Virus record (IMG/VR): IMGVR_UViG_2690316002_000018
Source of the DNA: a virus
Taxonomy: Duplodnaviria; Heunggongvirae; Uroviricota; Caudoviricetes
Direction: 5' to 3' (one strand)
DNA: 24,368 bases
Part shown: positions 20,807-22,891 of the stretch, in pieces
Position numbering within the stretch: the first letter of the stretch is position 1
Layout of the letters: every line of letters begins with the position of its first letter
Notes under the pieces: generated by a model
Seen by the model: the letters and a program-made list of their open reading frames with translations, nothing else
The model's database searches: none
What the model was told of the DNA's origin: nothing
Position numbers and translations under genes: made by a program

Positions 20807-21104
20807 GTAGAAGGTGTTATCTCGGATGGAAGTAAGCGTATTGCTGAACTGGAGGCCTGGGTTGAATACACAAGAGCTGCATACGTAAGAGCAAAAGACA
20901 AGGGAGATTTGATCAGAGTTATTACCCGCCAACCAACGGGATTTTACGCTTACGTACCATGTAATTAGGAATCCTTGAAGTGGCAGCCTAACTGCGGATA
21001 CACTGAAATGGCGATTTGGTAACATGTTTCGCACAAGGCTGTTACTACGCTTAGAGATAATCAGCCATGATTAAACGCTTTGTAAAAAGTAAAAGGAAAT
21101 TACA

Positions 21105-21719
21105 ATGAAAAAATCAATACTAATTTTAGGGCTTACGTTAATTGTCTCATCTCAAATACCATCGGCAATGGCAAAAAATGAATCAAAACTATGGGTTGTT
21201 GTTGATCGAACGGAAAGACATACCTGCCCTTCAAGTAAATGTGGAGTGGCTGGGAAACTATTTTTCAGGGAAGGCGTAGATTTTCTAGAAAAAAAAGGTG
21301 AATGGGTTCGTATAACTGAGCCATATTCAGCCTCATGTGTTGGAGGGGAAAGCGAATATATTAAAGAAGGTAATAAATCCTGCACAAGAAAAAATGGAAT
21401 CGTTAATGGCAAGTTTTCAGAATGGGTTAAACTTAGTGATCTTAGCAGTGAAAGGCCATCAGATCCTGCTGAAAATGCGAGCGGAGATGATACTTTAATC
21501 AAAGGATCTGATGACTACCGTATATACAAAAAAGAGTTTTCTTCGGCAGCTAGGAAGTTAATAAATGAAGGGGTCTGCACGGAAAGCGATTTTAAGGAAA
21601 TCGGAGGGTGGATGGCATCAAGCAATAAGGGTGAAAACATCTATTTCACATATTGCGGAGGAATGACGTTGTCGAACAGAATATACCTAGATGTTAAAAG
21701 TGGAAAGACTTTTAGATAA
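21105..21719 (+). CDS. Secreted Cys-rich protein (204 aa, signal peptide), function unknown
   Basis: AAAGGAAA RBS; MKKSILILGLTLIVSSQIPSAMA signal peptide; eight cysteines in the mature part; AT-rich. Confidence 0.65.
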   Translation: MKKSILILGLTLIVSSQIPSAMAKNESKLWVVVDRTERHTCPSSKCGVAGKLFFREGVDFLEKKGEWVRITEPYSASCVGGESEYIKEGNKSCTRKNGIVNGKFSEWVKLSDLSSERPSDPAENASGDDTLIKGSDDYRIYKKEFSSAARKLINEGVCTESDFKEIGGWMASSNKGENIYFTYCGGMTLSNRIYLDVKSGKTFR

Positions 21720-21790
21720 TATGATATCACCAATGACAGTATTGATTTAATGCCTCCATAGAATTATCTCTAGGAGGTAGGTATAAGAAA

Positions 21791-21826
21791 AGCCCGCACA
21801 ATGAGCTGCTGCGGGCTTTGTGTTAT
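21791..21826 (+). terminator. Rho-independent terminator after the secreted-protein gene
   Basis: Perfect 8-bp stem AGCCCGCA / TGCGGGCT with 11-nt loop, followed by TTGTGTTATT. Confidence 0.5.
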
Positions 21827-21872
21827 TCGCCATATTTTATGAAGCAAATACGACACTATAGATAATTAAGCG

Positions 21873-21965
21873 TTGCTGGTTGTCGATTCCTCAATCACTC
21901 CTGTTGATGGCTCTCTTCTTGTATGTGCCATTGAAGGGGAATATCGCGTAAAAAGATACCGGAAG
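21873..21965 (+). pseudogene. Remnant of a UmuD/LexA-type S24 peptidase gene (C-terminal fragment only)
   Basis: Translation LVVDSSITPVDGSLLVCAIEGEYRVKRYRKYP parallels UmuD [31 protein letters not shown]; no N-terminal part and an in-frame stop immediately upstream. Confidence 0.4.
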
Positions 21966-22012
21966 TATCCGCGCCGCCATGATTGTCTTTCTCCTGATGC
22001 AGGAAAAGCAGA

Positions 22013-22351
22013 ATGGCTAAATCAGCAACAGAGCACAAAGCCGATCAGAGAGCCAAGCAAGCATCATCCGGTATGCGTAAGCTGGAGCTTGTACTTGATG
22101 CTCAGGAAATTGAAATGCTGGAGCGTAACTGTGCCACGCGTCGCTTCAGGCGTGCGCCTTGCGAGTTTGGTGAGTACATCGAGTTACTGAGCCGCCAGGA
22201 TGATGCACGTGTGCGCTGGCGTATAAAATCGATCAGCAGAAAACGTTGCGGTAAGTGCGGCGAGAGAGTTCCTGTTAATTCATGCCCGTGTAATGGTGAC
22301 TCACAATGCTGGGTGACCAAAGGCTGGCACGAAACAAAATTAATGATATAA
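22013..22351 (+). CDS. Hypothetical small protein with Cys-rich C-terminus (possible DNA-binding or zinc-ribbon protein)
   Basis: 112-aa ORF; possible internal start at MRKLELVLDAQEIEMLERN; C-terminal CGKCGERVPVNSCPCNGDSQC. Confidence 0.4.
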   Translation: MAKSATEHKADQRAKQASSGMRKLELVLDAQEIEMLERNCATRRFRRAPCEFGEYIELLSRQDDARVRWRIKSISRKRCGKCGERVPVNSCPCNGDSQCWVTKGWHETKLMI

Positions 22352-22357
22352 ATCTCT

Positions 22358-22369
22358 GTGACATGTCAC
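22358..22369. promoter_or_regulatory. Perfect 12-bp palindrome (operator-like) just upstream of the RBS of the 22380 gene
   Basis: GTGACATGTCAC followed by GGAGG and ATG. Confidence 0.4.
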
Positions 22370-22379
22370 GGAGGCGGCA

Positions 22380-22808
22380 ATGAAATTAGACCAGCAATAT
22401 CTAAAAGATCTACTTATCGCATTCGAAAAAACTCGTGGCCCTGACACGATGCTTAGTGAACTAGAGGATAATGGCTTTAATAGATATGACCAAGATTTTA
22501 TTTTCCATATGCGATTATTATGTGACTACGAATTAATAGTCAGGGTTGATGGAAAACCTGGGTTCGGTCATATAATGTCCAAAGCGTTAGGGGAAGGTGT
22601 TGGATATAGTTGGATCGAAGTACCACTGAGGTTGACAGCAAGAGGGCATGATTTTATTGCTGACTTACGTCAAAAGGATGTCTGGCAAGCTATAAAAACA
22701 AACTTTAAGGATGAGGGAATTAGTACACTTATGAGTGTTTCAAAATCACTAGCAAAAGGCTTTGCAAGGAAAAAGATAAAAGATATTACAGGAATAGATA
22801 TTGAATAA
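22380..22808 (+). CDS. Hypothetical protein (142 aa), possibly DUF2513-like
   Basis: GGAGG RBS; AT-rich; MKLDQQYLKDLLIAFEKTRGPD...; family assignment is a recollection, not a search result. Confidence 0.6.
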   Translation: MKLDQQYLKDLLIAFEKTRGPDTMLSELEDNGFNRYDQDFIFHMRLLCDYELIVRVDGKPGFGHIMSKALGEGVGYSWIEVPLRLTARGHDFIADLRQKDVWQAIKTNFKDEGISTLMSVSKSLAKGFARKKIKDITGIDIE

Positions 22809-22854
22809 TTCTTAGCATCAAGCAACTACTGCCTTTGGTGGAAATTATATCTGA

Positions 22855-22878
22855 ACTCGCTACGGCGAGTTTTGTTTT
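22855..22878 (+). terminator. Rho-independent terminator after the 22380 gene
   Basis: ACTCGC-TACG-GCGAGT followed by TTTGTTTT. Confidence 0.55.
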
Positions 22879-22891
22879 ATGGAGATGATAA

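Follow-up and report, generated by a model that had tools for sequence, protein, structure and literature searches.

A ribbon-helix-helix regulator gene and the palindrome that accompanies it in a mosaic accessory islet of a lambda-like prophage

Organization of the islet

The virus record IMGVR_UViG_2690316002_000018 (Caudoviricetes), a stretch of 24,368 nucleotides (nt) that is called the window throughout, is a lambda-like prophage whose pL operon lies on the + strand in the order exo, small open reading frames (ORFs), orf73 homologue, ea22-like ORF, islet, orf55, xis and int. We describe here the islet, an insert of non-lambda DNA, and especially a gene coding for a protein of 112 amino acids (aa) together with the palindrome of the GTGAC-N2-GTCAC family located at its 3' end. 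The features on which the argument is built are the following:

20854 to 22843, no strand: islet, non-lambda insert of 1,990 bp in place of lambda ea8.5 and the 3' half of ea22
22013 to 22351, + strand: gene of the 112-aa protein, with an N-terminal basic helix, a YbfE-like ribbon-helix-helix (RHH) and a C-terminal Cys4-type zinc ribbon
22344 to 22352, + strand: extended -10-like element TGATATAAA, overlapping the stop codon of the 112-aa gene; possible promoter, seen by eye
22353 to 22374, + strand: locally extended inverted repeat, as RNA a 9-bp hairpin pairing with GGAG of the DUF2513 ribosome-binding site (RBS); -10.8 kcal/mol, z = -3.6
22358 to 22369, no strand: palindrome GTGACATGTCAC, 12 bp, GTGAC-N2-GTCAC family, which goes with the 112-aa gene family
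22380 to 22808, + strand: cargo gene of a 142-aa DUF2513 protein (Pfam PF10711, phrog_585)

The original prediction, made from the sequence alone, had described an AT-rich block of six elements that replaces lambda-like sequence between the ea22-like gene and xis, and all six elements were found at or near the positions it gave. The replacement was borne out, with borders that can be placed exactly: in megablast comparisons lambda homology (94% identity) stops at 20853, inside ea22, where the match ends at query position 554, and it restarts at 22844, shortly upstream of a terminator-like hairpin and the orf55 homologue; lambda, HK630 and DE3 all match from 22844 onward. The description as AT-rich fits only in part, since the GC content, 41% overall, is uneven: it is 38% in the gene of a 204-aa secreted protein and 36% in the DUF2513 gene, but reaches 49-50% in a humD fragment and the 112-aa gene.

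Phage Chlobot, an isolated phage, was the sole phage match over the full length of the islet (99.7% identity), and at least 80% of the islet is present in 130 of 5,426 complete E. coli genomes, with about 99.7% identity among the records listed. The islet is therefore a stable arrangement that circulates in a viable phage. The stretch 21955-22344 shares 90% identity with phage TL-2011b (3' end of gp19 plus gp20) and with gp55 of phage phiV10. At least four independent acquisitions make up the islet, a mosaic that fills the variable 'ea' slot of a lambda-like prophage. One of its blocks, made up of the 112-aa gene, palindrome and DUF2513 gene, was taken from the last part of the early operon in an epsilon15-like phage (Uetakevirus). 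Neither the 204-aa gene nor the humD scar is related to the gene-site pair.

The 112-aa protein is a YbfE-like RHH protein with a zinc ribbon

As predicted, the 112-aa ORF has a Cys-rich C-terminus: the protein contains seven Cys, and its C-terminal CxxC...C...C cluster is conserved in the family. The AlphaFold2 model, with a predicted local distance difference test score (pLDDT) of 87.5, starts with a basic helix (residues 5-19), continues with an extended segment (20-29) and two helices (30-43 and 52-74) and, in the C-terminal half, holds the Cys cluster (79-99) and then a short final helix. The model contains the beta-strand, helix, helix unit of the RHH fold. Residues 8-70 align to residues 37-94 of YbfE ('LexA regulated protein', PRK11675) with an hhalign probability of 92.6% (E = 4.6e-7), and in both proteins a basic stretch is followed by a beta-alpha-alpha unit; YbfE, however, has no zinc ribbon. 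The protein stays below the equivalog cut-off of NCBIfam PRK11675 (17 bits vs 62), and its matches to Pfam RHH families are scattered and all sub-threshold. For the C-terminal half there was no Pfam match, and a weak profile match to TraR (6n57_M, E = 0.42) was the only useful result of PDB searches with the 204-, 112- and 142-aa proteins. We place the 112-aa protein in a YbfE-like branch of the RHH superfamily (CopG/Arc/MetJ), not in the MatP family. Homology to MatP, the organiser of the Ter macrodomain, was considered and rejected, as the hhalign probability was 0.14%; the four-helix bundle and coiled coil of MatP are missing from the 112-aa protein, which has the zinc ribbon in their place. 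We know of no described function or binding site for YbfE, and no GTGAC-N2-GTCAC sequence was found near E. coli ybfE.

The protein falls into phrog_536, where the label 'transcriptional regulator' has been assigned by similarity only. This family is compact, with about 100 clusters at 50% identity and most members close to 112 aa in length. A literature search found no experimental work on phrog_536 members and gave no relevant results for epsilon15 gp49; a paper on phage vB_EcoP_ZX5 concerns regulators other than this family. Epsilon15 gp49, phiV10 gp55 and TL-2011b gp20 are true homologues, 70-85% identical and each exactly 112 aa long, and their genes carry the same palindrome at the stop codon. 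In these three phages the gene is the last early gene, directly 5' of terS, whereas in the window it has been transplanted into the lambda pL operon.

The palindrome accompanies the 112-aa gene across phages

A perfect palindrome had been noted directly upstream of an RBS, and this is what is found, with the palindrome at 22358-22369, GGAGG at 22370-22374 and the ATG of the DUF2513 gene at 22380. The window contains three perfect 12-bp palindromes, compared to 4.4 +/- 2.1 in shuffled sequences, and at least one match to GTGACATGTCAC with up to two mismatches occurred in 64 of 100 shuffles. Since the palindrome by itself is within chance, its significance comes from comparative conservation only. 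The sequence GTGACATGTCAC is present as a single copy in the window and in Chlobot, and a literature search with it gave no results.

In the related loci, 833 kb altogether, 175 copies of GTGAC-N2-GTCAC were counted, where about 0.8 would be expected (an estimate from the 10 specified bases). The same half-sites with spacers N0, N1, N3, N4 or N6 were not observed at all and N5 was observed twice. Of 160 gene-bearing loci that could be evaluated, drawn from four phage types, 147 have the site at the stop codon or behind it. Eighty IMG/VR loci that code for close homologues have GTGACATGTCAC across the stop codon or immediately 3' of it, irrespective of the content downstream, and a site at the stop is also found in 60-72%-identical homologues of other Enterobacterales; the Uetakevirus-like contigs concerned come from E. 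coli, Salmonella, Cronobacter, Klebsiella and Enterobacter. In Pectobacterium myovirus ZF40 the site at the stop codon of the gene reads TGTGACATGTCACA. A clade of only 37-38% identity, which includes a P2-like Yersinia phage, has TTGTGAC-GC-GTCACAA or GTGAC-GT-GTCAC, in several members clear of the stop codon; the counterpart in the Yersinia phage is GTGACGCGTCAC. No further copies were found in Chlobot or in the P2-like Yersinia phage.

The arms GTGAC and GTCAC are invariant and show no compensatory changes, and the central dinucleotide varies together with the beta-strand of the protein predicted to face the DNA. Proteins with the strand RK-L-E-L-V-LD go with the centre AT, those with (N/T)E-(I/L)-R-x-(R/K)-LE with GC or GT, and those with RR-I-D-L-P-LD with CA. 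Where the 112-aa gene is absent, the site is not kept: in five context types with DUF2513 lacking the gene, none had an intact site. In Citrobacter and Serratia liquefaciens a relic of about 35 nt from the 3' end of the 112-aa gene is left and the site is mutated (GCGACATGTCAC, GTGACATCTCAC), and the DUF2513 loci of Yersinia, Buttiauxella and Serratia marcescens contain no site.

These results bear on two explanations in which the phage protein plays no role. According to the first, the palindrome would be a site for a host factor, such as a matS-like target of MatP or a SlmA site, through which the phage uses the chromosome-organising machinery of the host, and the 112-aa protein would be unrelated to it. 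We regard this as improbable, as over the 175 sites the spacer is always 2 nt and never 3, canonical matS is missing from prophages, the centre co-varies with a strand of a phage protein, and the site decays where the 112-aa gene is missing even though the host factor is still there; besides, the 112-aa family is not related to MatP (hhalign probability 0.14%, as above). According to the second, the palindrome would act as an RNA hairpin, sequestering the Shine-Dalgarno sequence or stabilising a 3' end without a dedicated protein. This would agree with the 9-bp stem at 22353-22374 and its pairing with the RBS of DUF2513, and with the loci examined, in all of which a gene that follows the site has its RBS-like sequence and start codon no more than about 10 nt away. 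However, the stem has just 4-6 bp in most loci, and the 9-bp extension belongs to the window only, not being kept in the Cronobacter or Citrobacter loci. The Uetakevirus copies B and C have no RBS downstream, and an Rfam search of the islet gave no match. Invariant arms without compensatory substitutions around a variable centre are the opposite of what structure alone would predict, and argue for sequence-specific recognition rather than a mere hairpin. A hairpin as the sole explanation thus appears unlikely to us. Retention with the gene, decay without it and covariation with the protein are the pattern that a protein-binding site read by the product of the adjacent gene would show, and argue against both a host-factor site and a purely structural RNA hairpin. 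To this extent the earlier description of the palindrome as operator-like stands: it is a conserved, sequence-specific site tied to the 112-aa gene across phages.

Copies of the site in Uetakeviruses

The genomes of epsilon15, phiV10 and TL-2011b differ from the window, with its single site, in having two more sites beyond the one at the gene. Exact copies of GTGACATGTCAC are located at 2142, 19517 and 39612 in epsilon15, at 2262 and 19493 in phiV10, which has a further copy with one mismatch at the stop of gp55 (39101), where the record is opened, and at 11500 and 32282 in TL-2011b (two exact copies). Every copy of epsilon15 and phiV10 adjoins an annotated intrinsic terminator, and terminator-like hairpin repeats can be read in the printed sequence of TL-2011b 3' of both copies. 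In epsilon15 and phiV10 the copies mark three boundaries, namely the end of the early operon, the position right behind the terminator of terS-terL, where a convergent gene ends next to the site, and the position right before the terminator of the structural operon. All three adjoin variable cargo (p03/p04, the Bro/Ant blocks and the pre-terminase slot). Repressor, integration host factor and RNase III sites are marked in the epsilon15 record, none of them at the positions of the palindrome, which is unannotated in the records of all three phages.

Such a distribution could also be expected if the palindrome were a junction for recombination or cassette exchange at slots where cargo is swapped. 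Variable cargo lies directly behind the site, all three Uetakevirus copies adjoin the variable regions just named, and in the P2-like phage the gene stands at the start of the interval between A and the portal gene, which we take to be a cargo hotspot in P2. Nevertheless, the site has no recombinase as a regular neighbour, the Citrobacter and S. liquefaciens breakpoints fall inside the 112-aa gene and not at the palindrome, and the extra block of TL-2011b was inserted 5' and not 3' of the site. In addition, 12 bp are short for homology-driven exchange, and covariation with the protein would be left unexplained. We therefore give this explanation only a small chance of being right.

In phiV10, TL-2011b and Cronobacter prophages, the interval from the early-operon terminator to terS also contains repeated motifs of the form TATTACCAC(A/G)(A/C/G)(C/T)GGT(A/T)A (positions 3470-3520 in locus L004, 75-120 in L097, which is phiV10, and about 5470-5500 in L010). 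Since they match the position of the 'repressor' protein_bind 12-27 of epsilon15, the late operon seems to be under direct control of the repressor.

DUF2513 and other cargo behind the site

The predicted 142-aa ORF behind the palindrome is present at 22380-22808. Its product passes the gathering threshold of PF10711 (42.7 bits vs 29.6, profile positions 1-100 of 100) and shows a weak match to the wHTH-PRTase_assc family, so that DUF2513 is probably a winged-helix protein that binds DNA. It had no match in PADLOC, NCBIfam or PDB, and literature searches on DUF2513 and PF10711 gave no results. DUF2513 occurs in several different prophage contexts, including Yersinia, Serratia and Buttiauxella prophages that have neither the 112-aa gene nor the site.

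The order 112-aa gene, palindrome, DUF2513, with a spacing of about 28 nt, is also found in Uetakevirus-like prophages of Cronobacter, at 61% and 65% protein identity. The window and Cronobacter have DUF2513 behind the site. Many Salmonella- and Citrobacter-type contigs have an SOS-box-like sequence there, followed by an intact humD-like gene, and other cases show a 70-aa ORF, an 8-codon ORF, a small gene plus integrase, or nothing (epsilon15). DUF2513 is thus interchangeable cargo behind the site. The sequence TGnTATAAA of the element TGATATAAA is kept in the window and in the Cronobacter and Citrobacter loci, only where DUF2513 is next, and is missing at loci with other cargo behind the site. 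It may be an extended -10 promoter, which would put the palindrome at about +1 to +12.

In two Uetakevirus-like IMG/VR contigs and about 25 similar ones, a promoter-like TTGACT-N15-TATACT, the SOS-box-like TACTGTTTAAATATACAGTA and the intact humD-like gene (MGFPSPAADYVE...) lie about 20-420 nt past the palindrome. In a variant of the islet seen in four IMG/VR loci (match 3001-3327), the 112-aa gene is cut at codon 109 and continues directly into the 3'-terminal part of lambda orf55 with its terminator, and both the palindrome and DUF2513 are deleted.

The arrangement might be taken for a type II toxin-antitoxin or defence pair formed by the 112-aa RHH protein and DUF2513, with the palindrome as its operator. 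This is very improbable: the two genes do not co-occur obligatorily, as the RHH gene is mostly found without DUF2513, and DUF2513 stands alone in the Yersinia, Serratia and Buttiauxella prophages. A search of five islet ORFs against PADLOC-DB 2.0 (E up to 1) found no match to a defence model, DUF2513 is winged-helix-like and not a known toxin fold, and the operator would lie 3' and not 5' of the 'antitoxin' gene. The earlier proposal of a self-contained regulated module can be retained in so far as a regulator-like gene and a palindrome are physically linked and the three-part order recurs in Cronobacter. It does not hold for the three parts as one unit, given that gene and site mostly occur without DUF2513, DUF2513 occurs without gene and site, and Uetakeviruses have two more copies of the palindrome.

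Proposed mode of action

Starting from the established mosaic origin, fold class, co-inheritance of gene and site, covariation and decay, we lean, by a modest degree, towards the explanation that the window has received a transplanted Uetakevirus-like gene-site pair, whose product would bind GTGAC-N2-GTCAC as an RHH/zinc-ribbon dimer. On its cognate site, the dimer would contact the central base pairs through its beta-ribbon, and the invariant GTGAC half-sites would be recognised by the conserved basic helix or by helix ends. In the window the site would be placed between a probable extended -10 element and the RBS of DUF2513. As it lies on the 5' edge of DUF2513, bound protein would block or gate transcription that enters or starts at this gene, and it might also gate read-through of the pL transcript towards orf55-xis-int. 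That the bound 112-aa protein gates DUF2513 expression or read-through is a suggestion in which we have less confidence than in the binding itself. In Uetakeviruses the same protein would have three sites to act on; each adjoins an intrinsic terminator where an operon or a cargo region is bounded, an arrangement that suggests a role as roadblock or insulator.

Several observations weigh against binding and gating of this kind. Operators are not typically located at the 3' end of the gene for their own regulator, the sequences 3' of the site share no promoter geometry, and a consensus promoter scanner did not call the extended -10 element TGATATAAA. In 13 of the 160 evaluable loci the gene is kept and the site is missing. 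Most loci have a site that overlaps the stop codon, so that its co-transfer with the gene is partly automatic, and since the covariation extends over only about three clades, shared ancestry could produce it. Finally, Chlobot, the 24 kb of the window and the Yersinia phage have only one site, so that the idea of a three-site insulator is inapplicable to them.

A wider possibility, which we consider doubtful, is that the YbfE-like RHH/zinc-ribbon protein and its sites form a phage 'boundary' system at junctions of core operons and cargo beside intrinsic terminators, working as roadblock, insulator or DNA-loop bridge, and that the portable gene-site unit carries cargo such as DUF2513 between phage families. 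The proposed boundary sites would be the three of epsilon15-like phages and the single ones of the P2-like, the ZF40-like and this lambda-like phage. Such a system would resemble the architecture of matS sites but use a protein of its own.

Two further roles were considered and lost ground. An activator of late genes is weakened by the annotated repressor-binding sites of epsilon15 upstream of terS, gp3 and gp20, by a separate small 'transcriptional regulator' gene in the P2-like phage, which we presume to be Ogr-like, and by the lack of a common promoter geometry behind the site. A site for loading an antiterminator is weakened by the location of copy B 3' of the terL terminator.

Remaining components of the islet

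The other features of the islet and its borders are:

20337 to 20558, just 5' of the truncated ea22: TraR/DksA-type zinc-finger ORF, 73 aa, homologue of lambda orf73
20555 to 20806, + strand: truncated ea22-like ORF, 83 aa (Pfam Ead_Ea22, E = 3e-19)
21105 to 21719, + strand: gene of the 204-aa secreted protein, with signal peptide, SH3b-like N-domain and six conserved Cys
21789 to 21827, + strand: intrinsic-terminator-like hairpin with T-rich tail, 3' of the 204-aa gene; RNA fold -22.2 kcal/mol, z = -3.2
21870 to 21975, + strand: internal fragment (106 bp) of a P1-type, UmuD'-like humD; 88% nt identity to humD of the P1-like phage D6
21955 to 22020, + strand: remnant of a DUF2591/NinX-like gene, its last ~60 nt; 89% identity to the 3' end of TL-2011b gp19
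22853 to 22880 (hairpin 22853-22872), + strand: terminator-like hairpin with T-tract; scanner match, RNA fold -12.4 kcal/mol, z = -3.5

The 204-aa protein had been predicted to be secreted and to contain eight Cys. It has a Sec-type signal peptide with cleavage at ...PSAMA|KNES, but only six Cys (41, 46, 78, 93, 158 and 184), all of them kept across the family. Its N-domain adopts an SH3b-like fold with a disulfide-rich insert, and its C-terminal alpha/beta domain has no solved relative. The protein remains below the Pfam gathering threshold for PF08239 SH3_3 (16.2 bits vs 27), and several of its homologues carry PF08239 in listings. It probably binds peptidoglycan via SH3b. The SH3b domains of endolysins and NlpC/P60 hydrolases differ from it in that it has no attached catalytic domain, and compared to bacterial SH3b domains it goes to the Gram-negative periplasm and possesses the disulfide-rich insertion and the additional C-terminal domain. 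The gene is a moron for a secreted periplasmic protein with its own terminator, the predicted hairpin and T-tract being present at 21789-21827; a simple scanner missed this hairpin on the + strand because of its long loop. Homologues with 62-69% identity are located directly 3' of a tyrosine integrase in six small Pseudomonas islands (gene 5001-5615 or equivalent), several of which also have common unannotated genes of about 105, 130 and 337 aa.

The presumed UmuD C-terminal fragment is a real UmuD-like piece, but an internal one. Nucleotide alignment assigns it to residues ~46-81 of the 129-aa HumD, with both ends missing, and it is 86-92% identical at the nt level to the other phage records listed. 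It lies below the cut-offs of NCBIfam HumD (positions 47-99 of 129, 53 bits vs 120) and Pfam (14 bits vs 23) and has no complete Peptidase S24 domain with a Ser-Lys dyad. The Prokaryotic Genome Annotation Pipeline (PGAP) labels this part a pseudogene in an identical E. coli locus. As only these residues of HumD are left, it is a pseudogene scar, without function. That it is the scar of a former umuDC-like module, as had been supposed, is not supported: the fragment is of P1-type humD and is joined to the DUF2591/NinX-like 3' end at the 8-nt microhomology TCCGCGCC. In Uetakeviruses the DUF2591/NinX-like gene lies 5' of the 112-aa gene and overlaps its start. The 105-codon ORF across the joint is a chimera. 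The Chlobot annotation (4974-5452) is wrongly split, with the 105-aa humD/NinX chimera named 'UmuD-like protein' and only the last 46 codons of the 112-aa gene covered under the name 'transcriptional regulator'. The intact humD-like gene with an SOS-box-like sequence behind the palindrome of Uetakevirus-like contigs is a different one, unlike the P1/D6-type scar of the window; its position indicates that RHH-gene and humD neighbourhoods recur.

A terminator had been predicted after the 142-aa protein. It exists, but it is part of the restarted lambda-homologous DNA upstream of orf55 and therefore lies outside the islet. The ea22-like ORF of the identical E. coli locus is labelled by PGAP as a frameshifted or partial pseudogene. 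NCBIfam searches of the islet proteins gave sub-threshold matches only.

In one E. coli genome (NZ_OY754443.1, 3094353-3097130) the islet is interrupted by IS1, its match being in two pieces over 2.8 kb. In the otherwise identical locus of E. coli PK8568 (5187-5530), PGAP adds a frameshifted hypothetical gene between orf55 and xis, which is lacking in the window, where orf55 ends at 23059 and xis starts at 23099. The window contains runs of N at 481-847, 9485-9805 and 18457-18497, the third among the recombination genes upstream of exo, and ORF or repeat calls across these runs are unreliable. Overall, the islet represents ordinary prophage mosaicism, accessory islets beside int/xis being common in lambdoid prophages, and apart from the gene-site pair its parts are ordinary, namely a moron for a secreted protein, the humD scar and DUF2513 as a cargo gene.

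Comparison with known systems

The phrog_536 family, to which epsilon15 gp49 belongs, now has an identifiable candidate cognate site, conserved over four phage architectures and with a clear logic of half-sites, spacing and centre. The gene-site pair offers a testable handle on how operons are delimited in epsilon15-like phages, and it may show how cargo is insulated or controlled. It also explains why matS-like sequence is found in prophages despite the avoidance of canonical matS there. The half-sites of matS are identical to GTGAC and GTCAC, but matS (GTGACRNYGTCAC) has 13 bp and a 3-nt spacer, while the phage site has 12 bp and N2. MatP/matS is analogous, as in both cases an RHH protein is paired with a GTGAC/GTCAC palindrome in several non-promoter copies; there is no homology between them. 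An RHH regulator with a palindromic site is already known in kind. What is new is the fusion to a zinc ribbon, the constant position of the site at the 3' end of the gene itself, and the triplet of terminator-adjacent sites in epsilon15-like phages.

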